64,000 nucleotides of DNA from Phycisphaerae bacterium (GCA_003551645.1 PUND01000134.1:6781-70780), one strand, 5' to 3'; positions 4,074-25,144 are shown, numbered from the stretch's first letter. Notes: a model not told the origin generated them from the letters alone. A program made the numbers and translations.

Positions 4074-4096
4074 ATTTGCCTTGTCTTCGCGGCCGG

Positions 4097-4896: not shown

Positions 4897-5172
4897 GCAC
4901 AATTCCCCCGAATTTTGAAGTATTTCATAATTCTATTTCCTGCAAGGGTTTGCTGATTGCCTGTGCCGCTGTTGTCGCCTCTGTCAGCAGCGGGTAGATA
5001 AACAAATCAGCAACGTCATCATTGTTCAAAGCCCCTTGCAGATACGTAAATAAGCCCCAAAACACGCTATAACTATATGAGAAGGGGAGTTAGCGGTCCG
5101 GCCAGGGTATGCCGGGCGGTCTCGCGGCCGAACGGCTGTTGATCACTGCATAACAGGACGAAAGGGAGTGTC

Positions 5173-5277: not shown

Positions 5278-5323
5278 GGATTTTTAGACGCCCTCTGAAA
5301 GATACACCCGCCAGCGGGATATT

Positions 5324-5623: not shown

Positions 5624-5628
5624 CTGCT

Positions 5629-8529: not shown

Positions 8530-8869
8530 AGTGAAGACCCCCGGTTTGGTCTTTGCCGGTGAGACCCATTGACCAAAGCTGCCGCCGGGTTCTTCCAGGC
8601 GCGGCAGGAACGTCGCCAGCCCATCACAAGCTGACCACCCACTCTCGCCTCCTGGCCGTGCTTCAGGAGGCGAGGCGAGAGGATAAGGGTCACGAGCTGC
8701 TTTTCACCCCCCGGCCTTCGCGGAAATACCCCGAAGGCGGCAGGTTAAACGCACCTCAGCGGCGAGTCGCCAAATCGGGACAAAACCGGGACAATCGGGG
8801 CGCACAAAAATGCCGACATGTCGCAAGAACTGTGTTTGTTACGCCTTACGAACGCCGGCTCTTTTGTAA

Positions 8870-8956
<87 letters not shown>

Positions 8957-9283
8957 ATGAAAGGCATTGTACGGGTGTTTGTTCTGGCTGGCAACCGAGC
9001 AGCGGGCGACGTTAATGTCGTACTTGCAGATGATGGGCGTCAGTGTGGTCCGCGGCCGCTACAGCCATCGCCGCCCCGGCCGCGGAAGTGAGCGACAGAA
9101 CGGTCACGTGACGGTCGCCGCAACGAATGATGCCGGCCGGTTGCCGCACGGTTCGGAGGAGCCGATTAGAAGTGCTGAACTTGCACAGCCCGTTGGTACG
9201 ATTTAAACTATGGTAGGCAATGCCGTGCCCGGCGAATTTGTCCGATACTATAGCGCCGTCGGCGTGTTCAAAGCACAGTCCCG

Positions 9284-10417
9284 ATGTGCTCGGCCCGGGC
9301 GGCGGAGACCGCGATGACCAACGTAAGCATTTTTGAAGCGACGGTAGAGCACTTCCTCGCGCCTATCATGTCTTACATGCGCGATCCGGATATCTCGGAG
9401 ATCATGGTCAACGCTCCGGACGAGATATACATCGAGCGTCAGGGCCGCGTAGAGAAGACCGACGCCCGCTTCGACGACGAGGAGGCCCTGCTGGCGGCGG
9501 TCAAAAACGTGCTCCAGTACACCGGCAAGCAGGTGTCCCAGCAGCAGCCGCTGGTGGATTCGCGCCTTCCGGACGGCAGCCGTGTTCATGTCATCCTGAG
9601 ACCGCTGTGCCGGACCAGCACTGTGATGTGCATCCGCAAGTTCGCCAAGACCCTGCTGGACGCCGACCGCCTGCTGGAGCTTGGCTCATGGACGCCGGAG
9701 ATGATGGGCTATCTGCGAGTCTGCGTGCAGGGCGCGAAGAACATACTGCTGGCCGGCGGAACCAGCAGCGGAAAGACCTCGTTGCTGAATGTGCTGAGCG
9801 GTTTCGTGCCCGACGACCAGCGGGTTGTGGTGATAGAGGACTCCGCCGAGCTTGATTTTCAGAAGCCGCACGTGCTGTCGCTGGAGAGCCGCCCGCCGGA
9901 CCGCTGGGGCAGGGGCGAGGTGACGATACGCGAGTTGTTCCGCTCGGCCCTTCGCCTGCGGCCGGACAGGGTGATTATCGGGGAGGTCCGCGGCGGCGAG
10001 GCCCTGGACGTGATACAGGCGATGACCTCCGGACACGCCGGCAGCATGACCACGCTGCACGCCACCGGGGGGCTGGACGCCCTGAACCGCCTGGAGACGC
10101 TGGCGATGATGTCCACGGTGGAGCTGCCGCTGCACGCCTTGCGGGCGCAGATCGCCTCGGCCATCGACGTGCTGGTGCAGGTCACGCGATTCCCGGACGG
10201 CAGGCGGATGGTGACGGGGTCTTCGGAAGTGCTTCCGCTGGGGGATGATGGAAAATATCGCATTCAGGAGATATTCCGATACGAGCCGCCCGCGGCCGGC
10301 GGAGAGGACCGTCTGACGTGGACCGGTCAGAAATCCCTTTTCGCCGATCAGGCGAGCATTCGCAAGCTCCGCGAACATTGGGGCCAGGCGGGGTTCGTAT
10401 TCGGGGGTGAAATGTAG
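9284..10417 (+). CDS. cpaF: CpaF/TadA-family Tad pilus ATPase, short form without an N-terminal accessory domain.
   Basis: Walker A reads [15 protein letters not shown]. The family regions DPDISEIMVNAPDEIYIERQG and ...DRVIIGEVRGGEALDVIQAMTSGHAGSMTTLHA are present. An alternative start lies at 9314 (MTNV..., preceded by GGAG). Confidence 0.8.
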   Translation: MCSARAAETAMTNVSIFEATVEHFLAPIMSYMRDPDISEIMVNAPDEIYIERQGRVEKTDARFDDEEALLAAVKNVLQYTGKQVSQQQPLVDSRLPDGSRVHVILRPLCRTSTVMCIRKFAKTLLDADRLLELGSWTPEMMGYLRVCVQGAKNILLAGGTSSGKTSLLNVLSGFVPDDQRVVVIEDSAELDFQKPHVLSLESRPPDRWGRGEVTIRELFRSALRLRPDRVIIGEVRGGEALDVIQAMTSGHAGSMTTLHATGGLDALNRLETLAMMSTVELPLHALRAQIASAIDVLVQVTRFPDGRRMVTGSSEVLPLGDDGKYRIQEIFRYEPPAAGGEDRLTWTGQKSLFADQASIRKLREHWGQAGFVFGGEM

Positions 10418-10421
10418 TACA

Positions 10422-10619
10422 ATGAACGTGGATAGAATGCCTGGTGGAATACGGAAAAAACGGCTTGCCGAGGACCAGTCGGGGCAGACCACCATTGAGT
10501 GGGTGCTGCTGCTGGGCGCTTTCGGTATTCCCATGGTGTACATGATGGTGCTGCTGCTGGCCACGCTGAGCGAGCACTACCGCATGGTGACTTTTATTCA
10601 GACGCTACCGCTGCCCTGA
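10422..10619 (+). CDS. flp: Flp-family type IVb pilin (paralog 1).
   Basis: The leader is followed by G/QTTIEWVLLLGAFGI, an Flp cleavage-site motif G/xxxxE(Y/W) plus a hydrophobic helix. Start ATGs at 10407, 10422 and 10437 are all possible. Confidence 0.6.
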   Translation: MNVDRMPGGIRKKRLAEDQSGQTTIEWVLLLGAFGIPMVYMMVLLLATLSEHYRMVTFIQTLPLP

Positions 10620-10677
10620 CGGGCCGACGGGCGGCGGGCGAGCCATACTGGTCGGCCCGGGAACGGATGGTTGATTC

Positions 10678-10887
10678 ATGAGACAGACAGGAAGCATAAC
10701 CCAGCGGCTCAAGGCCCTGCATCGCGACGAACGTGGCGCGGACATGGTGGAGTACATCCTGCTGATAGCGGCGGTGGCGCTGCCGCTGCTGGCGGTGCTG
10801 ATCTTCTTCTGGCGTGATATCTCCGAGCGCGTCAGCTCGCTTTGGCGCGACGTGTGGGGCGACGCCGAAGAAGGCATGCCTCGCTGA
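10678..10887 (+). CDS. flp: Flp-family type IVb pilin (paralog 2).
   Basis: ERGADMVEYILLIAAVALPLLAVLIF is the canonical G/xxxVEY Flp motif plus a hydrophobic stretch. Length is 69 aa. Confidence 0.75.
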   Translation: MRQTGSITQRLKALHRDERGADMVEYILLIAAVALPLLAVLIFFWRDISERVSSLWRDVWGDAEEGMPR

Positions 10888-10919
10888 GCACTGACCGCTC
10901 GGGCTGAGGTGAACCGTCT

Positions 10920-11492
10920 ATGCCGCCGCTAGCGGAGATGTGGCCGTTCGCGGTGCTGGGTGTGGTGGTGGTCGTGGCGGCCATTTCCGACGTCCGCACC
11001 GGAAGGGTCCCGAACGCTGTTACTTACCCGGCCATCGCCGTAGGGCTTCTGGCACACACGCTGCTGGGAGGCATGCGCGGCGAAGGCCCGGGGATCGGTC
11101 TGTACGCGTCGGCGGCGGGTCTGGCTGCGGGCTTTCTGCCGATGCTGGTGGTGTGGCTGGCCGGCGGCATCGGCGGCGGCGACGCGAAGCTCATGGCCGC
11201 GGTCGGGGCGCTGACCGGCTGGCGGTTCGCCTTGTCGGCGCTGTTTTATGGCCTTGTCGTGGCGGTGGTCCTGGCGCTGATAGTGATGGTGCGAAAGCGC
11301 ATCGTGCGCCGGACGCTGCGACGATTGTTCGGTTTTCTGGTGCTTTTGCTGACGCCCTCCAAACCGGCGGATCCAGCCGCCGAGGGAAGCGAGAAAATAC
11401 CGTTCGCGCTGGCGCTTTGCATAGGCGCCGGGGCGGCGCTGGCCGAGGTGGTTATGCGAGGCCAGCACGCTATGAAACTGCTGGGCCTCTGA
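10920..11492 (+). CDS. cpaA: Prepilin peptidase CpaA/TadV (A24 family).
   Basis: The N-terminus is polytopic, and ISDVRTGRVPN is the conserved D...R.IPN motif of A24 peptidases. A second Asp region is present (GGGDAKLMAA). Confidence 0.75.
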   Translation: MPPLAEMWPFAVLGVVVVVAAISDVRTGRVPNAVTYPAIAVGLLAHTLLGGMRGEGPGIGLYASAAGLAAGFLPMLVVWLAGGIGGGDAKLMAAVGALTGWRFALSALFYGLVVAVVLALIVMVRKRIVRRTLRRLFGFLVLLLTPSKPADPAAEGSEKIPFALALCIGAGAALAEVVMRGQHAMKLLGL

Positions 11493-11565
11493 GTCGCGAC
11501 GCAGCGGCCTCGGCGGCCCTTGGCAGAGCAATCCGGGAATTGGCTGCCGCAGACGCTTTCGGACA

Positions 11566-12504
11566 ATGATTAACGGTCAAGGAAAACGTGACCGCATGGT
11601 CGCCAGGGCATGCGCCGGCGGACTGCTGGTGCTGCTGGTCGGCGGCATATTCGCGGCGGTGTTTTTCGGTGGCGGTATTGTCGGCGCCGGAGACAACGAG
11701 CGACACTGGCTGCCGGCGGCGGTGACCAGTCCGCTGTTTATCGCTTGCGCGGCCGTGGCGCTGGTCAGCGCGGTGCTGGCGGCATGGCTGGCCGGGGCCT
11801 TGGTGCTTGCCGGAAGAAGACAGCGCAGCCACGACGGGGCCGAAGGCGGCGCAATGATCGAGTTCGCACTGGTGCTGCCGTTTCTGCTGATGATCGTGCT
11901 GGTGATGATACAGTCGGCGCTGCTCATGGGCGCTCAGCTTTGCGTCAATTACGCCGCGTACAGCGCCGCTCGCAGCGCAGTTGTGCAGATTCCATCGGAT
12001 CGTGGATACAACGAACCGCCTAACATGCCGGGCAGCAGCAAGATGGAGCGTGTGCGGCTGGCCGCTTTGTGGGCGGTGCTGCCGATCAGCTCCGGCGGCT
12101 TCGAACACACTTCCCCGGACGGACAGACGCTGCGGGACGGGCTTGAAAGATTTTTCCGCAACTATGGCGAAGATGTTCCCGGTTGGGTGGACGGGCGCCT
12201 CGGACGCAAGCTTGCCTACGCGCGGGCACACACTGAGGTTTCACTGACCGAGCCGACACATACGTCGGGCCATACGCTCCCCAGCGGCGAAACTTACACC
12301 GGCTACGCCACGCACGCCGACGTTCGCGCGGAGGTGGAGCACACAATTTACCTGTCGGTGCCGTTCGCGGCGCGGATGTTCGCAGTGCTGGGCGGCGGCG
12401 TTCGCCTCGGCCCGGGGGAGCACGGGATGCCGCTTAAGGCCCACTGCACGCTGATAAACCAGGGCCAGCAGAATTATGTGGATGTTGAAGTGTGGGACGA
12501 TTGA
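11566..12504 (+). CDS. TadE/TadG-like pseudopilin-type pilus assembly protein.
   Basis: GAMIEFALVLPFLLMIVLVMIQSALLMG is the TadE-like N-terminal motif. The start is uncertain: the 95 aa upstream are hydrophobic and low-complexity, and an internal start near 11854 is possible. Confidence 0.55.
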   Translation: MINGQGKRDRMVARACAGGLLVLLVGGIFAAVFFGGGIVGAGDNERHWLPAAVTSPLFIACAAVALVSAVLAAWLAGALVLAGRRQRSHDGAEGGAMIEFALVLPFLLMIVLVMIQSALLMGAQLCVNYAAYSAARSAVVQIPSDRGYNEPPNMPGSSKMERVRLAALWAVLPISSGGFEHTSPDGQTLRDGLERFFRNYGEDVPGWVDGRLGRKLAYARAHTEVSLTEPTHTSGHTLPSGETYTGYATHADVRAEVEHTIYLSVPFAARMFAVLGGGVRLGPGEHGMPLKAHCTLINQGQQNYVDVEVWDD

Positions 12505-12553
12505 GCGACCCAAGCGGCGGCGGATGCCGCCAAGGTAGACCGGGACGGAACGG

Positions 12554-15250
12554 ATGACAGAGGATAAGGCGAACAACAGTGAAGGGCGCGGCGACGAAGT
12601 CGGACTGCCGGCCGGCACGAAGATAGGCAAATACGAGGTTCGTGAACGGCTGGGCATTGGCGGTCAGGCCATCGTGTATCGCTGCTACGACCCCACTCTT
12701 GAACGCGATGTTGCGATCAAGCAGATATCTTCGCATCTTTCCGAGGACGAGGAGTTCGTAAGCCGTTTTCGCCGCGAGGCGCAGGTGCTGGCCCGCGTCG
12801 GTGCAATGCAGCCGGCCGTCATCACCATTCACGAACTGCTCGAGGACGAGCGCGGGCTGTTCATCGTCATGGAATATGTCCGCGGGGAAACACTCGAGAC
12901 CGTCATACGGAACTACGACGGTCCGGCGGAGACCAGGGCGGTTCTTCAGCTTATCTGGCGACTGGCGGCTGCGCTGCACGACGTGCATAAGGCGGGAATC
13001 ATCCACCGCGACCTCAAACCCGGTAACATCATCGTCTCCGAGGGGCTTCGGCCGAAGATATCGGACTTCGGCCTGGCGGCCGCCGGGGCCGAGCAGACCT
13101 CGGTGCTGATGGGCACTACCAAGTACATGGCCCCGGAGCTTTTTGAGGGTAAGCCGGCCGACGCCCGCGTTGATATGTACTCGCTGGGCTTCATCGCCTA
13201 TGAGATGCTGCTGGGTCGCGAGAAGTTCAACGAGGTCTTCGCCGATGTGGTTCGTGACCGCCACACCGCCGCCATGCGATGGATGAAATGGCACGGTAAC
13301 AAACAGGTCCAGGCCCCGGCTCTGCACGAGCTTAACCCGTCGGTCCCCAAGGCGCTTTCGGGCATCGTGGCGAAGATGATCGCCAAGGATCCCGACGAGC
13401 GATTCCAGACGATGGAGGAACTTGGCCGGGCGATAAAGCAGCATTTCTCCCCGCGTTTTCGTGCGGCGGGAGCAGGAGCGGGTATCGCGGCCGGCGGCGA
13501 GGGGCAAGGACCGCCGGCGGAAGGCAGGTCCGAAAAGTCTATCGCCCCGGAGGAGGGCGACGAGCTTGAACTGGAACTCGAGGAGCCACCTCCGACGGCG
13601 CCCATACCTAGCGGGCGGTTCTCGACGCGTCTGAAGATCGGGCTGGCTGCCTTCATTGGCCTGGTGATAGTTGTCGGCGGCGTGGCGATAGGCGTTCGAA
13701 TGGGCCGCGAGCGGGCGGACATTGCGGGAGAGTACTCAAGGGCGGCAGACCTTTATGAGGAAGGCAAGCTGGAGCACGACCGCGACAAGCTCGCCGAGGC
13801 CGCCGAACGGTTTGAACATATTCGCGTCGAGCACGGTGGCACCGAGGCGGCCGCACGCGCGTCGGTCCGCGTTCACATGGCCAGGGCGCATGTGGCCGTG
13901 CTGGACCAGGACTGGGACGCCGCGGCCAAGGAGGAGGCCTCGTCCAAGGACCACCTGCGGACGGTCCAGAGGGAAGAACTGGCCCCAGTTTCCTGGGTGC
14001 GTGAGATCGACGACGAAATCGACGGTTTCGAGGCCTACCGGCTTAACGCCCGCACCTTCGCCAGTGCGGAACGACAGGCCCGCGACCGGATGGCCGCGGG
14101 GCGGTTCGACGAAGCCGAGACCGGCTTCCAAAGAGAGCTTGAGGGCCTGACTCTGACCGATTGGCTGCGCGAGCGGCGAGACGAGTTTCTGCACGAGCTT
14201 CGGCGACAGCGCGTGGTTACGACGTTCGAAGACGCCGTAGAGCGGGGCGACGATCTTGCCGAGCAGCAGGAGTACGAGCAGGCAGCCGAGTCGTACGCCG
14301 AGGCCGAGCAGGCACTTGAGTCGGAGTATGCCGAGGAGGTCCTTTCGTCCGACGAACTGACGTCTATGCGGAACGAACTCTCGGAAAAGACCGAGGAACT
14401 GGACGAGGACCGCCGTTACGCCGAGGCAATCGAGGCGGCCGATCAGGCCGCCGATAACCAGGCCAAAATCCGACACCTGGAAACGGCGGCGGAAATCAGA
14501 CCATCGGATGAGCTGCAACAGCGCATAGACCGGCTCCAGGCCGACATCCACTACGAGCAGGCCCAGCGGATGCGGGACAGAGGCGACTTTTCCGGGGCGA
14601 TGAGGGCGCTGGAGCAGTCGCTGGAATACGCGGACCGCGAAGACGTCCGGCGTGAGATGGAGAACCTGAGCGGGCGGATAGAGAAGCTGGAACTGACCCA
14701 GGCCGGCGACGAGGCCGCTGATGCCGGGAACCTCGAACAGGCGCTTTCAAAGTATCGCCAGGCGGCGGAACTGGAGCAGACACAACAGTTACGTGAGAAG
14801 ATCAATCTCGCTGAATTCCAGCTTCAATTCGCCGAGGCCGAACGTCTGAGGGAGGAGGGCGAGTTCGACGAGGCCGTCGAGGCCTACGAGCGCGCAAGGC
14901 AGATTCGCCCGCAGGCCGAGCCGCAGGTTGAGGCCCGACTGTCGGAGATGATGCAGCGCAGGCAATACGACGAACTGATTGCCCAGGGCGACGAGCACCT
15001 GCAGGAGGATCGGTGGCACCGGGCGATGAACAAGTTTAAAGAGGCCCAGGAGGTAATGGACACCGAGGAGGTCGCCCGTAGGCAGGACCGCGCCAACCAT
15101 ATGCGCTATAAGGCCGAAGGCAACGATGCGATGGAGCGTGGGAACTACTCTGAAGCGCTGGGCTATTTCAGAATCGCCGAGCGGTTCGAAAGCACGCAGG
15201 AAATTGAGAACCTGATAGCCGAAGCCCGGGCGCGCGCCGAGTCGCAGTAG
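12554..15250 (+). CDS. Hanks-type Ser/Thr protein kinase with one TM helix and a ~500-aa Glu/Arg/Ala/Gln-rich helical C-terminal region.
   Basis: The kinase subdomains are GIGGQAIVYRCYD...VAIKQI, HRDLKPGNII, DFGLA, APE, and the TM helix is IGLAAFIGLVIVVGGVAIGV. The C-terminus is coiled-coil/TPR-like low complexity. Confidence 0.85.
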   Translation: MTEDKANNSEGRGDEVGLPAGTKIGKYEVRERLGIGGQAIVYRCYDPTLERDVAIKQISSHLSEDEEFVSRFRREAQVLARVGAMQPAVITIHELLEDERGLFIVMEYVRGETLETVIRNYDGPAETRAVLQLIWRLAAALHDVHKAGIIHRDLKPGNIIVSEGLRPKISDFGLAAAGAEQTSVLMGTTKYMAPELFEGKPADARVDMYSLGFIAYEMLLGREKFNEVFADVVRDRHTAAMRWMKWHGNKQVQAPALHELNPSVPKALSGIVAKMIAKDPDERFQTMEELGRAIKQHFSPRFRAAGAGAGIAAGGEGQGPPAEGRSEKSIAPEEGDELELELEEPPPTAPIPSGRFSTRLKIGLAAFIGLVIVVGGVAIGVRMGRERADIAGEYSRAADLYEEGKLEHDRDKLAEAAERFEHIRVEHGGTEAAARASVRVHMARAHVAVLDQDWDAAAKEEASSKDHLRTVQREELAPVSWVREIDDEIDGFEAYRLNARTFASAERQARDRMAAGRFDEAETGFQRELEGLTLTDWLRERRDEFLHELRRQRVVTTFEDAVERGDDLAEQQEYEQAAESYAEAEQALESEYAEEVLSSDELTSMRNELSEKTEELDEDRRYAEAIEAADQAADNQAKIRHLETAAEIRPSDELQQRIDRLQADIHYEQAQRMRDRGDFSGAMRALEQSLEYADREDVRREMENLSGRIEKLELTQAGDEAADAGNLEQALSKYRQAAELEQTQQLREKINLAEFQLQFAEAERLREEGEFDEAVEAYERARQIRPQAEPQVEARLSEMMQRRQYDELIAQGDEHLQEDRWHRAMNKFKEAQEVMDTEEVARRQDRANHMRYKAEGNDAMERGNYSEALGYFRIAERFESTQEIENLIAEARARAESQ

Positions 15251-15351
15251 CCGGGAAATCGGCGGATTCGACGGCGCGGATGGCGAAATAAGATGCAACA
15301 TTAGGGCGGAAACACTCGTATAAACGAGTCCCGCCTTACACGGATACACCA

Positions 15352-18246
15352 GTGAACGACTTGCCTTCAAATACCGTGTTCGGAACCCGGACAATTTCAC
15401 CCGCCGGCTACTCACACCGGAGCCGACGCGGGCAGGTACTTGCACTGACGCTGATTGCGCTTGCGGCGCTGGTGGGGCTGGTGATGTTCGTTTACAACGT
15501 CGGTCACCAGGTCAACCGGCGCTCGGACCTTCAGAAAACCGCCGACTCCACCGCGACGGCCGGGGCGTCGTGGATGTCGCGAAGTATGAACGTGGTGGCG
15601 ATGAATAACCTCGCCCAGGCGCGCATGCTTTCGCTTGTACCGGTTCTGGACGCGATACCGCTGTCCGCTGAGATCACCCTCCAGGAGATGATCCTGGACA
15701 TGGAGACCGGCGACTCTCTGCCGATGGGTCTGACGCGCCAGCTCCAGCGGGGTGTTCCAAATACGCGACAGGAGCAGGCCTACGTTGAGCAGTCCCGACT
15801 CGATGCAACCGTTGCCGACGCGGTTCTGTTCATGCCGGCCGACGAGCCTGAGCTTGAGCCGATCTGGCCGCTGCCCTCGGATGTTCGAGCGCGCATTGCG
15901 TCCGTGGGAAGAGTCGTGGGCAACGACGACGCGGGGTTCGAGACCAGCGGCGATTGGCGCACCACCAGCGGCGTCGTCAACGCCCACCGAGGAAGCTCCG
16001 CCGAGACGCTTCAGCAAGGCGCCAGCGCCAGATGGACGACCACATTGCCCGCCCCCGGCAGTTACGACGTTTATGCCTGGTGGAGCAGCACCACCGACGG
16101 GACAAACCGAGATTCCTCGGCCAGGTACAGCGTCGGCGGCAGCAGGGTTACCCGCAACCAGAATCGCAACTGCGGTACGTGGAATCGGCTGGGCACTTTC
16201 AGCTTCAGTGAAAACCAGCAGGGCGAAGTCGTTGCGAGTGTCACCGTAGAGCGAACCAGCCGTGGCGGCGATGTTGGGGGCCCCAGGGTGAATTTCGTCC
16301 GGACCGGGCTTGAGAAGCTTGAAGCCCAGATGACACCCGGCGACGACGGGGAGTTTCAGAGCCAGTTCGACGCGCTGAGCCAGCTCGACGAGGCGCTGGA
16401 CAGCCCGGAGAAGCTCGAATCTGGCGATGGACACGACATACGCAGCACCACCCACTGGAACCCCGGTACGGGCCTGGCCGACAGGGGCGAGCTGTGGGAG
16501 GCGATGATAACCCTGGACGAAGTGAGCCAGGCGACCGTGGATTCGGCCGGACTGCTGGCCCAGGCCGATGCCGTCCGCTTCGGCGAGGCAAATGATGTCG
16601 ATACCTCCGCCGTAGTGCCGGTAAGACCGAAGATTCCGGCAAGGCGGGGCGAGTTCGAGGACTTCCTTCCGGTGCTGGGCGGACATCTGACCGTTACCAG
16701 CGATAGCGCCGAGATGAGCATGCCCATCTATCCGGCGGTCAACACCATCAACCAGTTAAGCGTTCGGCTGCAGGAGCTGGAAGATGAGATGCAGGAGCTC
16801 CAGAGAAAGTTGGACGAGCTTCTGAGACTGCCGCCTGAAGAGGCGGATGAGGAAGAGACAGAGCGAGAAATAGAGGAAATCGAGCAGCGTATGAACCGGT
16901 TGCTGGACCGGATTCTGCGCCTGGAGCGGCGGAAGGAATCGCTGCTTGGCGGGCTTCACAATCGCGGCCGGGGCGGGGCGATTCCGGACTGGGAATACCC
17001 TCACCGACTCGGTCCCTTCGCTCGCCTGCTGCGGTGGCGGCACAACATCCGCGAGCGTGTCAACGGCGGCGGCACTCCGCCTTCGGACCCCGGATGGGGA
17101 GGCGACCCGGAGGTCGGCGCGCCGCGAATGCCCGGCGGCGGGGGGAGCTGGCGGACAATAGGGTACCGGACTTACGGGCCTTACTGGTGGGCGATGGACC
17201 GCATGTACCACTCTTTCGGGCTTGTCGGACGGCGGACCGGCCCGGCCGACGTCAGCCGCTTTGTCTCGAACCACCGGCTCATCTCAAACATCAAGTTCGG
17301 GTACCTTTTCGGTCTGGATGAGCCGCAGACCGTCAAGTACGCCCGGCGATGGATTACCGACTTCGAGGAGGCCAGGGAATACGCCTCCGACCCGGAGCGG
17401 CGAAGGCGCATAATCCGGACGCGGTACTACAGGCCGCTGGTGATGTCGTCGGTAAGCTGGGACAGCGACGACTGGCTGAAAGACCCGTCCACTTACTGGA
17501 GCCCGCGGAACCACATATCCCCGCCGGACGACCCCAGGGCGTCGCTGTGGGTCAGCGAGTCCCGCGGCTGGCGGGACGTGGAGCAGTTCCGCCCCGAGGC
17601 CGAGCGCGTCAACGACTACATCTGGCGATGGAGTCGCAGTTACGACGAGGTCGCCTTCGACCAGCGCGTGAACCTCTACCCTCGCTACGACTCAAATACC
17701 GGCGAGCCGATACCGTGGGAGCTGTACATATGTAGCTGGTTCATCTTCGGCGGCATCGAGGTGTACGAGGAAACAGTCGAGGTGTCCAACCCGTTCAACT
17801 TTTCCAGCGGAGATTCACTGCCGGCGCCGATGCTGCTGGATACCTCCGACGGCGACTACGACCCGACCATTCCGCCGGGCCGGGTTACGCCGGATGAGGA
17901 GAACTCCTTCCGCAGGCAGTATTTCACACTGCTGGGCGTCGCCAGACAGAACGACGACGGCGTGGTCTGGCCACAGCAGTTCTACAGCGCCGACCCGACC
18001 GAATCGATGCTGGCGATCTCGCAGGCCAGGATGTTCAACAACCGCAGCTTCGATCTCTGGACGCAGGACTGGCAGAATCAGTTGGCGCCGGTGACCGGCT
18101 GGACCTCGTGGATTCAGCGGCTCCGTGACGGCATCCCCGATGCCGGGGACATGGGCGAGCTGCTCAGCGAAGAGGAGCTGGAAGATATAGAACGTTATAT
18201 GTCGGCTCTGGAGGGCCGGATGCTGGAGCTGTTCATGACCCACTGA
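15352..18246 (+). CDS. Large TadG-like (Tad_N-domain) pilus-associated protein with a beta-sandwich domain and an acidic coiled-coil segment.
   Basis: The N-terminus has a TM helix followed by RRSDLQKTADSTATAGASWM, matching the TadE/G-like N-terminal motif (..LQnAADAAALAGA). An internal segment reads YAWWSSTTDGTNRDSSARYSVGGSRVTRNQNRNCGTWNRLGTFSF and resembles golvesin-C-terminal-like/CBM domains. A further segment ELEDEMQELQRKLDELLRLPPEEADEEETEREIEEIEQRMNRLLDRILRLERRKE is coiled coil. Confidence 0.6.
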   Translation: MNDLPSNTVFGTRTISPAGYSHRSRRGQVLALTLIALAALVGLVMFVYNVGHQVNRRSDLQKTADSTATAGASWMSRSMNVVAMNNLAQARMLSLVPVLDAIPLSAEITLQEMILDMETGDSLPMGLTRQLQRGVPNTRQEQAYVEQSRLDATVADAVLFMPADEPELEPIWPLPSDVRARIASVGRVVGNDDAGFETSGDWRTTSGVVNAHRGSSAETLQQGASARWTTTLPAPGSYDVYAWWSSTTDGTNRDSSARYSVGGSRVTRNQNRNCGTWNRLGTFSFSENQQGEVVASVTVERTSRGGDVGGPRVNFVRTGLEKLEAQMTPGDDGEFQSQFDALSQLDEALDSPEKLESGDGHDIRSTTHWNPGTGLADRGELWEAMITLDEVSQATVDSAGLLAQADAVRFGEANDVDTSAVVPVRPKIPARRGEFEDFLPVLGGHLTVTSDSAEMSMPIYPAVNTINQLSVRLQELEDEMQELQRKLDELLRLPPEEADEEETEREIEEIEQRMNRLLDRILRLERRKESLLGGLHNRGRGGAIPDWEYPHRLGPFARLLRWRHNIRERVNGGGTPPSDPGWGGDPEVGAPRMPGGGGSWRTIGYRTYGPYWWAMDRMYHSFGLVGRRTGPADVSRFVSNHRLISNIKFGYLFGLDEPQTVKYARRWITDFEEAREYASDPERRRRIIRTRYYRPLVMSSVSWDSDDWLKDPSTYWSPRNHISPPDDPRASLWVSESRGWRDVEQFRPEAERVNDYIWRWSRSYDEVAFDQRVNLYPRYDSNTGEPIPWELYICSWFIFGGIEVYEETVEVSNPFNFSSGDSLPAPMLLDTSDGDYDPTIPPGRVTPDEENSFRRQYFTLLGVARQNDDGVVWPQQFYSADPTESMLAISQARMFNNRSFDLWTQDWQNQLAPVTGWTSWIQRLRDGIPDAGDMGELLSEEELEDIERYMSALEGRMLELFMTH

Positions 18247-18297
18247 CCGCCCCGGCCGCCGGCTGTATCGCCGCGAAAGATTCGACGAGTTGACAAG

Positions 18298-18906
18298 ATG
18301 AATCATAACCGAAAAAATCGATCCGCACAGCTGCGAGGGACCGCGCTGGCCGAGACCATAATGGTCATACCGATGTTGGGCTTCGTGCTGGCGTTGACGT
18401 TCTTTTTCGGCTGGGCGATGCGCAACCAGCAGGGTGTCCGACAGGCGGCGCACTACTCGGCATGGCGGCGCGTGTTACGGAACGAAGGCAGCAGCTCAAG
18501 CGACCTGAACCGCAAGTTCCTCTTCGACGCGGCCTCGCCGGTGGAAACCTCCGGAAGCAGGGCCGGTAAGCCGACCCTTGAGGACTACGCGGACTTCGCC
18601 CGAGGATTCAGCAAGCCGGCCGGACAGATGGTCCAGGAGACGGCCGTGGAAAACTATCCCCGCGGACACTCGTCGCGCGTGGCCGCGGAGTTTCCTTCGG
18701 ACGTGGGCCTCTGGCGGGCTTTCAGCGGCGCCATCCGCGCCCGCCACACGCGGGAGGGCGTCGAGTGGCGTCGGGGAGAGGCCTCGGTCGAACGGGCGGT
18801 CCGTGAACTGCATATGACAGGCATAGAACAGACGCTGGACAACATACCCCCGCCGGGTAACGTGCTCGCCGATCGCATACGCGACCTGTACCGTAGTCCC
18901 TGGTAG
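18298..18906 (+). CDS. tadE: TadE-family pilus assembly protein.
   Basis: A basic leader is followed by GTALAETIMVIPMLGFVLALTFFFGW. Confidence 0.65.
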   Translation: MNHNRKNRSAQLRGTALAETIMVIPMLGFVLALTFFFGWAMRNQQGVRQAAHYSAWRRVLRNEGSSSSDLNRKFLFDAASPVETSGSRAGKPTLEDYADFARGFSKPAGQMVQETAVENYPRGHSSRVAAEFPSDVGLWRAFSGAIRARHTREGVEWRRGEASVERAVRELHMTGIEQTLDNIPPPGNVLADRIRDLYRSPW

Positions 18907-18924
18907 CTTGCCCACCTTTGGCTC

Positions 18925-19527
18925 ATGACAGACGATGCGAACACCCCGCTGTCGGACAGCCGGCCCGCGGACGAAGAGACGCGAGCAAGGCGAATAGGGC
19001 CGGGGCTGCTGTTTGTATGTTTCCTGGTCGCGGGTGTCTTCGCGGCCTGGCAGGGGCATCGGATATGGTTCGCACCGGCGGCCGAGCCGGATGAGCGGGA
19101 TCTGACCGACCTGAGCATCCCGGCGACCGTGCCGGATGATGAACGGTTCCTGCATGAGCCGCTGTCGGTGGCGAACCTGACGCGGCTTGCCGATGAGCCG
19201 GGCGGCATAGCTCCGCCGCCCCAGGCCAGACGACTTCGTGCCTTCGAGCGAAGCGACGGGCGGCTGACAGAGCAGTTCGCCACCTATGAGCTGCCGGCGG
19301 AGTCGGCGTCGGCCGCCGTGGAGCACTACCGTGCGGTGCTGTCGGAAGCCGGCTTGGACCCGTTCGGTGAGGCCGAGAGCGACCACGGCCGCGTGCTGGT
19401 GTTCGGCCGTGATGAGACACAGGTTGTGGTCGGCTTGCGTGAGCGGGCCGAAAAAGAGAAGATAGACCTAACACTGAGCATAATGATGCCGGCCAAGCGT
19501 GCCGGTGAATCAGGAGAGGAGCCCTGA
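18925..19527 (+). CDS. Hypothetical membrane-anchored protein in the Tad locus.
   Basis: There is a single TM helix (GLLFVCFLVAGVFAAW). No motif was recognised. The assignment rests on position between tadE and cpaB. Confidence 0.4.
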   Translation: MTDDANTPLSDSRPADEETRARRIGPGLLFVCFLVAGVFAAWQGHRIWFAPAAEPDERDLTDLSIPATVPDDERFLHEPLSVANLTRLADEPGGIAPPPQARRLRAFERSDGRLTEQFATYELPAESASAAVEHYRAVLSEAGLDPFGEAESDHGRVLVFGRDETQVVVGLRERAEKEKIDLTLSIMMPAKRAGESGEEP

Positions 19528-20295
19528 ATGGCCGAGGAAGCCCCCGGGGTACAGAACAAGTGGCTGCTGGTTATAGCGGTCGTCATAGGTCTTGTCGTCG
19601 TTGCCCTGCACAACGTGCATGTGGGCGCGGTGCGCAGGCAGGCCAGAGGTCGTGAGCTTCAGCTTCTGCGGACCAGAGTGGACCTCGAGCCGGGCGCCCG
19701 TATCGAGCGGGCGGACCTGGAGGTCGTTACGATCCGCGAGGAAAACGCCGAGCCGTTCGGCAACGTGCTTACCGAAAGGGACATCGGAACCGCCGTCCGC
19801 GAGAACGTCAACCAGCGGATTCCGGCGGGGCGGTGGCTTACCTGGGAGCACTTTCTGGGCGAAGCCGCACGCAGGCCGGCCGAGAGCATCGACCCTGACA
19901 AGGTCAGTTGCGTCATCGACATCGACGGAAGCCCCGGCGAGCTGCTGACCGTCGGAGACCGGGTGAATGTCCTGGGTGTCTTCGCGGTGGGCGGCCGCGG
20001 GGCCCGGACGTACCGCGTGGTGGAAAGCGTACCTGTAATCGCCATCGACGGCCGGACCGAGCCGGGAACCAGGCGGACGAATTTCCGCCAGGTTCAGGTC
20101 ATCGTCGACCGCGAAGTTTCGCCGAAGCTCAAGAACGTGCTGACCCACAGGCGGGGCGAGGTCTGGCTTGAGGTGCTGCATCCGGAGGCGGGTATCCCCG
20201 AAGACGCCGGACAGATAAACCCCGAGCTTACGCCGCTGACCGAATCCGCCGCCGGGGACGAGCGCGGACAGATACAGGTCGAGAACGACTTTTAG
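19528..20295 (+). CDS. cpaB: CpaB/RcpC-family Flp pilus assembly protein.
   Basis: There is an N-terminal TM helix (WLLVIAVVIGLVVVAL) and a SAF-like region (RTRVDLEPGARIERADLEVVTIRE). The length of ~255 aa and the position before cpaF fit. Confidence 0.6.
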   Translation: MAEEAPGVQNKWLLVIAVVIGLVVVALHNVHVGAVRRQARGRELQLLRTRVDLEPGARIERADLEVVTIREENAEPFGNVLTERDIGTAVRENVNQRIPAGRWLTWEHFLGEAARRPAESIDPDKVSCVIDIDGSPGELLTVGDRVNVLGVFAVGGRGARTYRVVESVPVIAIDGRTEPGTRRTNFRQVQVIVDREVSPKLKNVLTHRRGEVWLEVLHPEAGIPEDAGQINPELTPLTESAAGDERGQIQVENDF

Positions 20296-20321
20296 AAACG
20301 CCGGCGACTTCGTGAGCAAGC

Positions 20322-22199
20322 ATGGAAATATGGGTATATAATCAGTACACCGACCAGCGCGACAGGGTCCAGGCCGACGGCGGAGAAATCAACATAGGCC
20401 GCGAGGACAACAACGACGTGGTCCTTCGCAGCCAGTTCGTGTCCCGACATCACGCCCGGATAGTCCGTGAGGGAAAGTCGTTCTTCATCGAGTCGCTTGG
20501 TCTTAACGGCACGATAGTGGCCAACGACCTTGTGCCCGCGCACCAGAAGCGGAAGCTCGGCTTTGGCGACGAGATCCGCATCGGCGAGTTCGTGCTGTAC
20601 ATGATGGAGCCGGCGGCCAGGCGGATCGGAACCGGCGAAAGGGCCGAGTCGCCGCGCAAGCGGGTTATCGACCTCGAGCAGCGGATGCACGCCGAACTGC
20701 TTGGGCTGCTGAACCTTCGCGTCACCGGCCAGCGCAGCGGCGCCGACGAACAGCACGTCAAGCTCATCAAGCGCCACCTGGCCGAGATTATCGAGAAACA
20801 CCGGGGCCAAATAGACGCCGAGATGACCGAGTATCTTGTCGGGGAATATCTCTGGCGTTGCGTGGTTACCGAGCTTGCCCGCCGTGCTACCGGCAAGCTG
20901 GTGTACAGCTACGGCTTCGAGGATACAGACGTGGTCTCGCCCCGCCACGAGGACGCGGTCAACAGGATGGTCGGCGACGTCATCAGCGCGTTTCCCCTGC
21001 GGCTTCGCCCGCATACCGTCAAGGATGACGTCGCGGCCGTCGAGAAGCACTGGGACGAGCAGTTGGAGTCGCTGAAAAACCGCATCAGCCCCGAATTGCG
21101 GGACTACATCGTCCGGAGGATGGTCTCAAAGGAGATCGAGGACGTCGTGCTCGGCTACGGGCCGCTGCAGGACCTGCTGGAGATGCCCAACGTCAACGAG
21201 ATTATGGTCGTGGGCAAGGACCGCATCTATGTCGAGAAGGACGGCGTTGTGCAGGACACCGGTAGGAGCTTTTTCACCGACGAGATCGTCCAGAGCGTCA
21301 TCGAACGTATCATAACGCCCATCGGCCGGCGTATAGACCGCTCCACCCCGCTGGTGGACGCCCGCCTGCCGGACGGCTCGCGGGTAAACGCCATCATCAA
21401 CCCGCTCAGTTTGTCCGGGCCGGTGCTGACCATCCGCAAATTCGCCCGCGTGCCGTTCACCATCGACGACCTCATCGAACAAGGCACGATGACCGAAAAC
21501 GTCGCCAATTTCCTCCGGGCTTGCGTCGTGGGGCGGAAGAACCTGATGATGTCTGGCGGAACCAGCAGCGGCAAGACCACCACGCTGAACGTGCTGGCGA
21601 ACTTTATCCCGCCGGAAGAGCGGATAATCACCATCGAGGAATCGGCCGAGCTGCAACTGCCACAGGAGCACTTGGTCCGCCTGGAGACACGCCCGGCGAA
21701 CATCGAGGGCCGCGGTGCCTACAGCATTCGCGAGCTGGTCCGCAACGCGCTGCGGATGCGTCCGGACCGGATTATCGTCGGCGAGGTTCGCGGGCCTGAG
21801 GCACTGGACATGCTCCAGGCGATGAACACCGGGCACGACGGCTCGCTGAGCACCATTCACGCGAACAATCCGGTCGATACACTGATGCGTATCGAGACGA
21901 TGGTGCTCATGGCGGTGGAGATGCCGGTTCGCGCCATCCGTGAGCAGATAGTCGCGGCGCTGGATCTGACCGTCCAGATAGCCCGGTTCGCCGGCGGGCA
22001 GCGGCGCGTAACCCACGTCTCGGAGATTACCGGAATCGACCCGGACACCGGACGAGCGATGACCGAGGATATCTTCGCCATGCGGTCGGCCGACGAAAGG
22101 GGACGAGGCGAGGGCAACATCAGGCACACCGGATACATACCCACCTTTGCCGACGAGCTGGTGGGTAAGGGTCTGCTGGATGTGGAGGTGTTTACGTGA
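20322..22199 (+). CDS. cpaF: CpaF/TadA-family Tad pilus ATPase with an N-terminal FHA domain.
   Basis: The FHA domain is [51 protein letters not shown]. Walker A is [15 protein letters not shown]. The family regions [31 protein letters not shown] are present. Confidence 0.85.
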
Positions 22200-23065
22200 G
22201 CGAGGCGTTGGTTATTTCGCCGGCTGTAACCGATCTGGTGCTCAGCGGAGTCATGTTCGCCGCGATGTTGCTGGCGGTGGTTATAGGCCTGAGGCCTCTG
22301 CAGCGGCTGGTGCGACACCAGGAGCAGCAGTTCGACCGGGTGCTTCGGGGGCAGTTGCTGATGGACATCAAACCGCGCTCGGCAACGGTGGCCACGGTGT
22401 TCTTCGTCGTGCTCTGCGGCGCGGTGGGATACCTTCTGCTCCAGAGCATGGTCGCGGTTTTACTCTTCGCCGTGGGTGGGACGGTGGCGCCGGTTCTGGC
22501 GCTGAGGTGGCTTCGCGCCCGCCGCATACAAAAGCTGGAAAGTCAGCTTGTCGAGGGCATACACACCCTGGCCGCCGGTGTCCGCGCCGGGCTTAACCTT
22601 GTGCAGTCGCTGGAGCTGGTCGCCCGCGACGGGCCTGTTCCGCTGAAGCAGGAGTTCAGCCACCTGATTCGCGAGTACGAGTACGGCACGCCGCTTGACC
22701 AGGCCATGGACAACGCCGGCACGCGGATCGGCTCGGGCGATTTCCGCCTGCTTTTCAGCGCCCTGCAGACCCACCGCGAGCGGGGCGGCGATCTGGGCGA
22801 TACGCTGGATCGCATCGCTGCCAGCATTCGCGAGATTCAGCGTCTGGAAAGCCGCGTCGAGGCCCTGACCGCCGAGGGGCGGGTCACAGCCAGGGTCCTG
22901 GCTGGTTTCCCCGCGGTCGTGCTGGGCATCATTTATCTGATAGACGCAGCGCCGGTGTCGCTGCTGTTTACCGACACGGTGGGCAAGGCCATACTGACCG
23001 CGATAGTGGTGCTTAACGTTTTGAGCTTCCTGTGGATTCGCCGTATTGTGGCCATCGACATCTGA
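22196..23065 (+). CDS. tadB: TadB (T2SS-F/GspF-like inner-membrane platform protein).
   Basis: It is polytopic, with a T2SSF-type cytoplasmic domain (IREYEYGTPLDQAMDNAGTRIGSGDFRLLFSALQTHRERGGDL). Its start overlaps the cpaF stop (GTGA). Confidence 0.75.
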   Translation: MSEALVISPAVTDLVLSGVMFAAMLLAVVIGLRPLQRLVRHQEQQFDRVLRGQLLMDIKPRSATVATVFFVVLCGAVGYLLLQSMVAVLLFAVGGTVAPVLALRWLRARRIQKLESQLVEGIHTLAAGVRAGLNLVQSLELVARDGPVPLKQEFSHLIREYEYGTPLDQAMDNAGTRIGSGDFRLLFSALQTHRERGGDLGDTLDRIAASIREIQRLESRVEALTAEGRVTARVLAGFPAVVLGIIYLIDAAPVSLLFTDTVGKAILTAIVVLNVLSFLWIRRIVAIDI

Positions 23066-23066
23066 A

Positions 23067-24008
23067 ATGCCTAACAGCACATACATCATGGTCGCCGGAG
23101 TCGGCATTGGTCTTATGGACGTGCTCTTGTCGGTCGGCATATTCGCGGCGGTTACGCTGCTGATTGTGGGCGTGTTCAGCCAGCCGGGCCGCATCCAGCG
23201 CAGCGCCGAGCGGGAGGCCGCCATCGCCACCGGCCACACCGACCGCAAGACGGTCTTTGAAAGCGCCGCACTGCGCCCGCTGATGTGGCTGCTGCTGGCA
23301 CTGGGCCATCGCCTGGCCATTCCGCGGACCAAAGACTGGATCCGCCGCAAGCTTATCGCCGGCGGCAACCCCAACTACCACACGCCGGAGGAGTACGTGG
23401 CGCTGTCGTTGCTTACCGGCATTGCGCTGATGGTGGTTCTGGAAGCGCTTCACCTGGTGCTGACCGGGCAGCTTTCGATCTTCCTGGGAGTGGTGGGGTT
23501 TGTCGGAGGCGTGCTGCTGTCGGTTTACCAGCTTCACGACCGGGCCGCCAAGAGGGTCCGCGAGATATCCAAGCGACTGCCTTACACGCTGGATTTGATA
23601 TCCCTGGCGATGGGGGCCGGAGCGACGTTCACCGAGGCCGCCCAGACCGTCGTCCGCGAGAACGTGGAAGACCCCCTTAACGTCGAACTGAAGTCGATGC
23701 TGGCCGAGATAGACCTCGGGGCGACCCGCAGGCGGGCGCTTCAGAACCTCGCGGCGCGGATACCACTGTCGGCCCTGCACAGCATCATCGCCAGCATCAT
23801 CCAGGCCGAGGAGCTTGGCACGCCGCTGAGCGATGTGCTCCACGACCAGTCGGCATTGCTTCGTCAGCGTCGGTGGGTCCGCGCCGAGAACGCCGCGGCC
23901 GCCGCCGGCGTCAAGATACTCGTGCCCTGTCTGCTGCTGGTGATGGCGGTCATGCTGGCGGTATTCGGGCCTTTTATTGTTAAGTTCATCAGGGGCGACC
24001 TTTTCTGA
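23067..24008 (+). CDS. tadC: TadC (T2SS-F-like inner-membrane platform protein).
   Basis: The T2SSF domain reads LPYTLDLISLAMGAGATFTEAAQTVVREN...ALHSIIASIIQAEELGTPLSDVL. The ATG at 23067 directly follows the tadB stop. Confidence 0.75.
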   Translation: MPNSTYIMVAGVGIGLMDVLLSVGIFAAVTLLIVGVFSQPGRIQRSAEREAAIATGHTDRKTVFESAALRPLMWLLLALGHRLAIPRTKDWIRRKLIAGGNPNYHTPEEYVALSLLTGIALMVVLEALHLVLTGQLSIFLGVVGFVGGVLLSVYQLHDRAAKRVREISKRLPYTLDLISLAMGAGATFTEAAQTVVRENVEDPLNVELKSMLAEIDLGATRRRALQNLAARIPLSALHSIIASIIQAEELGTPLSDVLHDQSALLRQRRWVRAENAAAAAGVKILVPCLLLVMAVMLAVFGPFIVKFIRGDLF

Positions 24009-25144
24009 TGGCCAAGAGCAGACCATACCTCGTTTTCGTCTCCGGCCCGCAAGAGGGCTGGCGCGTCATGCTGCACTCGCGCCCGATGGAGGCCGGCCGG
24101 GTTCCCACGGCCGATATACAGCTTACCGAGAACTACTCCTCGCGAAGGCAGATGTTGTTTCGTCGCCGGGGCGATGAGTGGACAGTGGAAAATCTTTCCA
24201 CCAACGGTACGCGCATAAACGGACGCAACTACCGCGAGGGACAGCAGATTATCCTCGGTACCGGCGACCTTATCGGTATCGGCGCCGAGACGCGAATCCT
24301 CTACGTCGGCCCTGAAGATGACCCGGACGAGGTCCTGCGGCAGTGGCACGAGGACCACGAAACCGGGACCGAAGCCGAGCAGGGGGAGACCGGCGAGCAG
24401 CCGGCCGACGCCGAGAAGCCCCAACCAGCCCCGACTCCCGCAGCCGACAACGGCGATGCGCCGGTAACCGGACGACTGCCCACCGGGCCGCTGACGTCCG
24501 ACCTGTCGGCGCCTGGAAGCGAGCAGGAAGAGGAAGACGCCGAAGAGGCCGACCGGGAACGGTCCGCCAAGCGGAAGAAGTACCTGATGTTCGCCATGGT
24601 GTACGGCGTGGGGTTTATCGTCCTGCTGGCGGTTCTGTACTCGCTGCGGGGCGACGGCGGGACACTGGAGCCGACGGGCATGCCGCCGGTGTTGGGCGAG
24701 GAGGACATCCGCGACGCCATCGAGACATCACTGCGCAGACCGGCCAACCCGAGCCGAGGCGTTGAGATGCTGGAAAGAGCCGAGATGTATTACTACGACC
24801 GCCACCTGCGGGAAGGAAACCTCTATCGGGCGGTCAAGTGCTTCAAGCTCCACCTGGCGTACGCAGGCAGGAGCGACTTCGCCGAGCTGAAGCACTCGCG
24901 AATGCACCGGGACGCGACGCAGGAACTGGCCCGCATGGTCACAGACCAGTACCGCCACGCCTATCGCCTGCTTCGCAACCGCGACTGGTCGGCCGCCGAC
25001 GATGCCTTCCGACGACTCCAGCGGATCTACCCCGCCGCCGGCGAGCCGGAACCCCGCAGCACCGATCCTGTGATGAACCCGGAAGGCCCCGTCTGGTCAA
25101 ACATCGTCGAGCATTTGACCTACATCCGTCGAAGGACCGACTGA
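24008..25144 (+). CDS. FHA-domain protein with an acidic linker, a TM helix and a C-terminal helical domain.
   Basis: The N-terminus YLVFVSGPQEGWRVMLHSRPMEAGRVPTADIQLTENYSSRRQMLFRRRGDEWTVENLSTNGTRINGRNY is an FHA fold. The TM helix is YLMFAMVYGVGFIVLLAVLY. Confidence 0.7.
   Translation: MAKSRPYLVFVSGPQEGWRVMLHSRPMEAGRVPTADIQLTENYSSRRQMLFRRRGDEWTVENLSTNGTRINGRNYREGQQIILGTGDLIGIGAETRILYVGPEDDPDEVLRQWHEDHETGTEAEQGETGEQPADAEKPQPAPTPAADNGDAPVTGRLPTGPLTSDLSAPGSEQEEEDAEEADRERSAKRKKYLMFAMVYGVGFIVLLAVLYSLRGDGGTLEPTGMPPVLGEEDIRDAIETSLRRPANPSRGVEMLERAEMYYYDRHLREGNLYRAVKCFKLHLAYAGRSDFAELKHSRMHRDATQELARMVTDQYRHAYRLLRNRDWSAADDAFRRLQRIYPAAGEPEPRSTDPVMNPEGPVWSNIVEHLTYIRRRTD

Follow-up and report, generated by a model that had tools for sequence, protein, structure and literature searches.

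A Tad/Flp pilus operon of Phycisphaerae with an embedded Ser/Thr kinase, an FHA-bearing motor and a second CpaF-family ATPase

Introduction

How is a Tad/Flp pilus controlled when its operon carries two CpaF-family motor ATPases, one of them with an N-terminal FHA domain, together with a Hanks-type Ser/Thr kinase and a separate FHA membrane protein, and no gene for TadZ or a secretin? The question is raised by a 14-gene Tad/Flp operon (positions 9314-25144, plus strand; neighbouring genes overlap slightly or lie no more than about 100 nt apart) in a 64,000-nucleotide stretch of DNA from the metagenome-assembled genome of a Phycisphaerae bacterium (Planctomycetota; GCA_003551645.1, PUND01000134.1:6781-70780), the whole of which is called the window below. 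A preliminary description, generated from the sequence, proposed that the kinase phosphorylates a component of the locus and that this is read by the FHA domains, by analogy with PpkA-Fha1 control of the type VI secretion system (T6SS). All its domain assignments pass Pfam (T2SSE, FHA, Pkinase, T2SSF; Table 1): the first CpaF paralog, placed at 9284-10417, matches T2SSE only, the second matches both FHA and T2SSE, the kinase inside the locus matches Pkinase and TPR, and the FHA membrane protein lies right behind tadB and tadC. Its interpretation is supported and largely right, the mechanism itself being predicted from sequence.

With moderate confidence, the operon can be regarded as encoding an FHA-type Tad/Flp machine (type IVc pilus) in the form that it takes in Planctomycetota, similar to the Kil system of Myxococcus, which would be controlled by the kinase and the FHA domains and would possess a second motor. 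Read directly from the sequence are a full inner-membrane and pilin set and two catalytically intact CpaF-family ATPases belonging to different clades. The same holds for a receptor-type Hanks kinase and for two FHA domains with retained phosphothreonine pockets, one carried by the motor and the other by a bitopic membrane protein.

Organization and conservation of the operon

The 5' half of the operon comprises the genes of a short CpaF (cpaF1), two Flp pilins, prepilin peptidase, a TadE-like protein, the Hanks kinase with its transmembrane segment (TM) and TPR region, and a TadG-like protein. They are followed in the 3' half by the genes of a second TadE-like protein, an unknown protein, CpaB, FHA-CpaF, TadB, TadC and the FHA-TM protein. 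This is a real and conserved gene arrangement, not a chance pattern. The same gene order, with the kinase in the same slot, is found between unrelated flanks in nine other Planctomycetota loci (L081, L082, L084, L085, L086, L088, L089, L090 and the more distant L001). Since the slot is kept while the flanks differ, the kinase is an integral member of the operon and no passenger. Another locus, L083, agrees with L082 in protein and gene order, but its 14 kb contig is truncated: the 5' genes and the N-terminal kinase domain are missing from it.

Rearranged relatives occur more widely. In full-length FHA-CpaF loci from outside Planctomycetota, namely L006 (Myxococcota), L041, L064 and L072, the order is cpaB, secretin, FHA-cpaF, tadB, tadC and FHA-TM protein; L064 and L072 also encode Hanks kinases with TPR/Sel1 regions and a second, cpaF1-like ATPase. 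In L005, which belongs to a different Phycisphaerales lineage, cpaB, FHA-cpaF, tadB, tadC, FHA and kinase genes follow one another. The trio of FHA-CpaF, FHA-TM protein and kinase is kept, rearranged, in L005, L064 and L072, with the addition of a PP2C phosphatase in L072. The segment of L072 between tadC and the cpaF1-like gene (14909-19070) encodes an 822-aa double-FHA TM protein, the PP2C and a short kinase-like open reading frame (ORF); judged by domains, kinase, phosphatase and FHA are all present, as a full set, in this relative from outside the planctomycetes. An FHA protein upstream of the second ATPase in L006, indicated by weak phmmer matches, was not confirmed by Pfam and was discarded.

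A control set of 80 CpaF loci from many phyla, mostly non-FHA, was obtained by a single-protein genome scan. A kinase is present within 10 kb in 6/7 FHA-CpaF lineages versus 2/42 non-FHA CpaF loci (p=1.3e-5), and a second ATPase in 5/7 versus 1/42 (p=6e-5).

Absence of TadZ and of a linked secretin

The preliminary description reported neither a secretin nor TadZ in the approximately 16 kb of the locus, and this holds for the whole window. Pfam matches to a secretin or to ParA/CpaE/TadZ were lacking among its approximately 50 ORFs. Profiles for the secretin and for TadZ, derived from related loci, matched none of the ORFs in six frames (50 aa or longer) either; these profiles readily detect their targets in other loci. 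No ORF of the window has a deviant Walker A motif. A canonical tadZ or secretin just outside the operon is absent from 9 kb upstream and 39 kb downstream, as well as from within 10 kb in the Planctomycetota relatives (ten Planctomycetota loci for the secretin).

TadZ is encoded directly upstream of cpaF, or fused to it, in 60/70 non-FHA loci versus 0/9 FHA lineages (p=4.5e-7). The absence of TadZ is therefore a trait of the FHA-CpaF family, and, judged by gene content, FHA-CpaF and TadZ are mutually exclusive across the 80 CpaF loci. The lack of a linked secretin has another distribution: the secretin gene lies between cpaB and FHA-cpaF in L006, L041, L064 and L072, and cpaB abuts FHA-cpaF in the Planctomycetota version. 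By gene order, this lack is specific to Planctomycetota among the FHA-CpaF loci compared. The gene of the outer-membrane secretin probably lies in another part of the genome.

In two Bdellovibrionales loci, L015 (821-2992, 724 aa) and L025 (8831-11080, 750 aa), a ParA-like region with a KGGxGK[ST] motif and a CpaF core share one ORF. From this layout they are TadZ-TadA fusions like those described in a Bdellovibrio preprint (bioRxiv 10.64898/2026.07.08.737194).

Two motor ATPases

The gene of cpaF1 starts at 9314 in the source annotation (the longest ORF opens at 9284). The protein begins only 16 residues before the N-terminal domain (NTD), its residue 17 aligning to residue 150 of Caulobacter CpaF 9e24, and therefore lacks the intrinsically disordered region (IDR) and the three-helix bundle (3HB); it has no FHA domain either. 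The 3HB is part of the minimal CpaF architecture and is predicted to touch the platform (PMC12019362). Homologues of cpaF1 are 366-404 aa long (median 373 aa, n=120), and in Planctomycetota the family is as large as that of FHA-CpaF, its members often being encoded on the same contigs. The window, L001, L003, L006, L064, L072 and L082 have short ATPases that group in one clade (neighbour-joining (NJ) bootstrap 100/100). This clade is the deepest split of the ATPase tree (NJ, midpoint rooting), and its members are inherited together with FHA-CpaF in Planctomycetota, in Myxococcota and in other metagenome-assembled genomes (MAGs). Core identity is 43% between cpaF1 and FHA-CpaF versus 58% between FHA-CpaF and ordinary CpaF; Caulobacter CpaF structures are matched with 258 bits by cpaF1 and 348 bits by FHA-CpaF. 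Walker A, Asp box, Walker B and His box are kept in both families (120 homologues each). Assignment of cpaF1 as a PilT orthologue was rejected (pilT_fam 47 bits, cut-off 319); it is a CpaF-family protein.

The AlphaFold2 (AF2) model of FHA-CpaF consists of an FHA domain (residues 1-95), six helices (111-276), the NTD and the ATPase domain (CAD). Its relatives at 70-86% identity form more than 120 clusters, all from Phycisphaerae/Planctomycetota MAGs. The Planctomycetota clade (bootstrap 97-100) stands apart from the FHA-CpaFs of Myxococcota and deltaproteobacteria in the NJ tree, in which KilF was not included.

The preliminary description had left a choice between separate extension and retraction motors and separate pili. 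With only one TadB/TadC pair in the operon, two separate machines or pili are unlikely, and two motors acting on a single platform would fit better.

FHA domains, kinase and candidate phosphorylation site

The phosphothreonine (pThr) pocket of FHA-CpaF is strongly conserved: among 120 homologues G26, R27, S41 and R42 are kept in 100%, N62 in 99% and H44 in 94%. The FHA-TM protein combines a cytoplasmic FHA domain (residues 1-100), a disordered acidic/Pro linker, a TM at approximately 191-213 and an all-helical extracytoplasmic domain (231-377). Its residues G30, R31, S45 and R46 are invariant among homologues, of which the search returned only 10. The FHA domain is modelled by AF2 with pLDDT >90, and the best Foldseek matches of the full model, which are dominated by this domain, are the FHA domains of GarA/OdhI, DgcB and ArnA. 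Proteins of the same architecture are encoded directly 3' of tadC in L001, L005, L064 and L072.

The kinase comprises a kinase domain (27-288), a variable linker, one TM (approximately 356-378) and an extracytoplasmic helical/TPR region of about 520 aa. Its VAIK, HRD, DFG and APE motifs are intact, also in the family (about 95% of 123 diverged members), and its full length is matched by over 100 clusters at 50% identity. Just before the TM, within the otherwise unconserved linker, 123 full-length kinases share the motif T-A-x-[LIV]-P (T 95%, A 87%, L/I/V at +3 95%, P 95%). Many FHA domains prefer pT-x-x-I/L. The motif would fit this pT+3 specificity and could serve as a docking site. Thus the kinase-to-FHA scheme of the preliminary description gains conserved FHA pocket residues and kinase catalytic motifs, and phosphorylation itself is still a prediction.

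Comparison with known systems

The features of the canonical Tad/Cpa systems (Aggregatibacter tad, Caulobacter cpa) include the Flp G/xxxxEY motif, TadV, TadE/F, TadG, RcpC/CpaB, TadA/CpaF and TadB/TadC. The operon contains Flp prepilins, a short A24 peptidase, CpaF with TadB/TadC, and TadE/TadG/CpaB; the RcpA/CpaC secretin, a Tad component of diderms, and TadZ/CpaE beside TadA are missing from the 64 kb window. Canonical systems, in contrast, have one bifunctional ATPase, an adjoining TadZ/CpaE and a linked secretin, with neither FHA domains nor a Hanks kinase.

The closest described machine is Kil, in which KilF is an FHA-CpaF and several FHA proteins occur, one beside the platform genes (Seef et al. 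2021 eLife, PMC8460266; Herrou et al. 2025, PMC12075869). It is described with a single ATPase, no kinase has been named, and it is reported to be restricted to predatory deltaproteobacteria. The operon resembles Kil in its FHA-CpaF motor, its FHA membrane protein beside the platform genes (MXAN_4649 in Kil), its FHA and TPR accessory proteins, its large TadG-type tip pilin and the lack of TadZ. However, Kil is encoded by two clusters with a linked short secretin, KilC, whereas the present genes form one operon with no linked secretin, an embedded kinase and a second ATPase devoid of 3HB, in a Planctomycetota host. The analogy with PpkA-Fha1 drawn in the preliminary description is apt, but the Kil authors had already proposed PpkA/Fha1-like, contact-triggered phospho-signalling (PMC8460266).

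In Pseudomonas aeruginosa, the PpkA-PppA-Fha1 system likewise places a TM Hanks kinase with an extracytoplasmic sensor and an FHA protein in the locus of the machine they control. The machine there is a T6SS, this threonine phosphorylation pathway has its own PP2C, and FHA occurs on a soluble scaffold rather than on the motor ATPase. The operon encodes a membrane kinase with intact motifs, an FHA-CpaF with a complete pocket and an FHA-TM protein with a partial one, and no PP2C.

In type IVa pili, two PilT/VirB11-like ATPases, PilB and PilT, act on one platform, and the smaller PilT consists of NTD and ATPase domain only. A comparable layout may be seen here: two ATPases, one platform, and a smaller cpaF1 reduced to the same two domains.

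Class III CpaF proteins have the order FHA-IDR-3HB-NTD-CAD, are mostly betaproteobacterial and were described by domain architecture only (Nat Commun 2025, PMC12019362). FHA-CpaF shares with them the N-terminal FHA and the helices kept before the NTD; its linker is predicted to be helical rather than disordered, and it is paired with a kinase and a CpaF without 3HB, which itself falls outside classes I-III of that study. In Bdellovibrio bacteriovorus TadZA, the ParA-like TadZ is fused to the N-terminus of TadA and binds RomR (bioRxiv 10.64898/2026.07.08.737194). This species shares with the present system a localisation module on the TadA N-terminus, several tadA paralogues, and FHA and TPR genes near tad loci; its fused module is TadZ, whereas here it is FHA, with TadZ absent.

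FHA-CpaF (as class III), the FHA-rich Kil system and the PpkA/Fha1 analogy are thus already published. No paper was found on a Hanks kinase inside a Tad operon, on a conserved second CpaF without 3HB or on two CpaF proteins, or on Planctomycetes CpaF with a secretin or the present Planctomycetota system. New here, as far as comparative sequence data go, are the operon-embedded kinase with a predicted docking motif, the co-inherited minimal second motor, and the mutual exclusion of FHA-CpaF and TadZ.

Proposed mechanism and alternative explanations

Pilus assembly is probably controlled by phosphorylation in place of TadZ. The TPR region of the kinase would sense an envelope, surface or pilus signal, and the kinase would phosphorylate itself, most likely at T-A-x-[LIV]-P, and/or its operon partners. 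Binding of the pThr sites by the FHA domains of FHA-CpaF and the FHA-TM protein could then recruit the motor to the TadB/TadC platform and activate it, which in canonical Tad systems is the task of the ParA-like TadZ/CpaE. TadZA of Bdellovibrio provides a precedent for an N-terminal localisation module fused to TadA. The other motor, cpaF1, would serve this one platform independently of the kinase, most likely as an antagonistic (retraction) or alternative motor.

Several points weigh against this scheme. Both phosphorylation of operon components by the kinase and the roles assigned to the two ATPases are inferred, the latter purely so. The comparison loci were picked by similarity to FHA-CpaF and are no unbiased sample, the kinase match in L006 is weak (1e-6), and the ATPase tree was built by NJ with midpoint rooting, not by maximum likelihood. 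The FHA-TM protein mostly has Gln in place of the canonical His, and just 6/9 homologues keep the Asn that contacts pThr. The PP2C profile has no match in the operon, the window or any Planctomycetota locus, L072 alone being positive. The conserved T-A-x-[LIV]-P could have another purpose, and export through the outer membrane is left unexplained because no secretin was found in the window. FHA domains of ring proteins of the type III secretion system (T3SS) work without phosphate.

The FHA domains of the operon might likewise be phospho-independent structural modules, similar to those of T3SS YscD/PrgH, with the kinase regulating other targets or transcription. Both FHA regions indeed also match Yop-YscD_cpl, the Kil supplement describes MXAN_4649 as PrgH-like, and the pocket substitutions of the FHA-TM protein and the missing phosphatase gene point the same way. 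A structural module, however, does not readily account for a G-R, S-R and N pocket kept at 99-100% in FHA-CpaF, for structural matches of the FHA-TM protein to the bona fide pThr binders GarA/OdhI and DgcB, or for a kinase that belongs to the operon in each of the ten Planctomycetota loci and accompanies FHA-CpaF again in other phyla, where the loci are rearranged and one also encodes PP2C. This explanation is considered unlikely. Also unlikely is the proposal that the two ATPases do not form an extension/retraction pair at all but power different filaments (for example, one per Flp), or that cpaF1 is redundant. Two Flp genes come straight after cpaF1, Caulobacter CpaF alone drives both extension and retraction (PMC12019362), and of the three tadA paralogues of Bdellovibrio tadA2 is dispensable (bioRxiv 10.64898/2026.07.08.737194), which also tells against a second motor of importance. 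Different filaments are hard to reconcile with a single TadB/TadC pair, a single peptidase and a single CpaB. As for redundancy, cpaF1 is no recent duplicate but a distinct clade co-inherited with FHA-CpaF, and the conservation of its catalytic motifs argues for a maintained, non-redundant function.

The likeness to Kil allows the operon to be seen as encoding, instead of an adhesive pilus, a pseudopilus piston that kills or secretes on contact, with the kinase passing on the trigger. The shared hallmarks (FHA-CpaF, FHA-TM protein by the platform genes, TPR proteins, large TadG-type tip, no TadZ) and the contact-triggered phospho-signalling proposed by the Kil authors would agree with it. This is nevertheless improbable: no toxin, T3SS* or secretin is linked to the operon, the Planctomycetota FHA-CpaF clade is separate from those of Myxococcota and deltaproteobacteria in the NJ tree, and the TadG-like pilin contains an insert resembling a polysaccharide-binding module, which fits adhesion. 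Predation is not known from Phycisphaerae. The reading as a kinase/FHA-controlled pilus with a second motor is preferred. A wider generalization can be offered only tentatively: FHA-type Tad would be a distinct, cross-phylum class in which a kinase/FHA switch replaced TadZ in docking the motor to the platform and a kinase-blind cpaF1 performs the opposite stroke, with no linked secretin in its Planctomycetota members.

Other components and neighbouring genes

Several genes were absent from the preliminary description, among them those of the two Flp pilins, the A24 peptidase, the two TadE-like proteins, the TadG-like protein and the CpaB-like protein (Table 1).

Table 1. Features of the Tad/Flp operon (positions counted from the first nucleotide of the window)
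Feature	Position	Strand	Description
cpaF1, short CpaF-like ATPase	9314..10417	+	367 aa; T2SSE 5e-51; NTD + ATPase domain only
flpA, Flp-type prepilin	10437..10619	+	~60 aa; G/QTTIEW processing motif; ORF open from 10407
flpB, Flp prepilin	10678..10887	+	69 aa; G/ADMVEY motif
tadV/cpaA, prepilin peptidase	10920..11492	+	190 aa; Peptidase_A24 4e-18
TadE-like pseudopilin 1	11566..12504	+	312 aa; TadE 1.1e-8
Hanks-type Ser/Thr kinase	12554..15250	+	898 aa; Pkinase 3.4e-50, TPR_2 3.6e-10
Juxtamembrane motif T348-A-P-I-P352 of kinase	13595..13609	+	predicted phospho-acceptor and FHA docking site
TadG-like large minor pilin	15352..18246	+	964 aa; Tad 5.3e-7
TadG insert, carbohydrate-binding-like module	15913..16239 (residues 188-296)	+	Golvesin_C 4.6e-13
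TadE-like pseudopilin 2	18298..18906	+	202 aa; TadE 3.9e-5
Conserved bitopic membrane protein	18925..19527	+	200 aa; TM 21-39
CpaB/RcpC-like protein	19528..20295	+	255 aa; TIGR03177 1.6e-12 (under cut-off); iterated CpaB profile 5e-37
FHA-CpaF motor ATPase	20322..22199	+	625 aa; FHA 7.4e-15, T2SSE 2.1e-56
tadB, platform protein	22196..23065	+	T2SSF 4.5e-21
tadC, platform protein	23046..24008	+	T2SSF 4e-17
FHA-TM protein	24008..25144	+	378 aa; FHA 2.6e-11

The product of flpA has no Pfam match; its counterpart is present at the same position in L081, L082, L085 and L001. The matches of flpB to Flp_Fap (1.5e-4) and Flp1_like (3.5e-4) are both under the Pfam cut-off, and its orthologues in L082 and L085 are called Flp_Fap. 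A frame at 10940-11569 (209 aa, no matches) overlaps that of the A24 peptidase and is spurious. In TadE-like protein 1 the prepilin-like G/AMIEF motif is preceded by some 90 extra N-terminal residues, which include two hydrophobic segments; the protein's length is kept in relatives (283-317 aa). The 200-aa bitopic protein, for which no family or PDB match was obtained, has orthologues in the same slot in relatives. Orthologues of the CpaB-like protein in L084 and L085 are called RcpC. L084 has a 23S_rRNA_IVP (PF05635) gene between tadB and tadC (12802-13074).

The insert of the TadG-like protein (about 110 aa) resembles the module at the C-terminus of Paenibacillus xanthan lyase (6f2p, match at 2.8e-6). 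It is found in the window and L081 only, the TadG proteins of other relatives being 650-700 aa long. Since the module resembles carbohydrate-binding ones, the sequence suggests adhesion to polysaccharide, and the pilus may have a lectin-like tip. In L090, two tandem TadG-like paralogues (696 and 662 aa; 3782-7871) take the place of the single gene of the window.

The operon is bordered upstream by tRNA-Ser(GGA) (8869-8957, minus strand), directly 5' of its start, and downstream by a convergent GH3 gene (25156-26958). The GH3 gene was rejected as a member of the module because it adjoins the operon in the window and L081 only. The tRNA is the sole match of an Rfam scan of the window, in which promoter and terminator scans gave only background levels. 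Farther upstream are encoded a 972-aa protein with VWA and zinc-ribbon domains (10-2928) and a PEP-CTERM protein (4097-4816, minus strand). In Sulfolobus, ArnB, the partner of ArnA, which the FHA-TM model resembles, is a VWA protein. Approximately 8 kb downstream of the operon lie the genes of an APH-family kinase-like protein (32474-33508, minus strand) and a calcineurin-like phosphoesterase (33551-34492), both probably unrelated to it, as they are not kept beside the operon in relatives. A FliS-like chaperone (31633-32289, 1.8e-12) and a coiled-coil protein with a weak FlgT_C match (53088-54473, minus strand) suggest that the organism is flagellated.

Significance

Tad pili are widespread adhesion and surface-sensing organelles, and the operon touches two open questions of their biology, namely how CpaF switches between extension and retraction and what triggers the FHA-rich Kil-type machines. 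It supplies the missing kinase within the machine's own operon, with T348 as a candidate docking site, and a minimal second motor, in an arrangement kept in hundreds of environmental Planctomycetota. A simple rule for the recruitment of Tad motors, open to testing, follows from the exclusion between FHA-CpaF and TadZ. Kil-like machinery is moreover found beyond predatory deltaproteobacteria, and if the tentative generalization above is true, the system would be a two-motor Tad pilus convergent with PilB/PilT.

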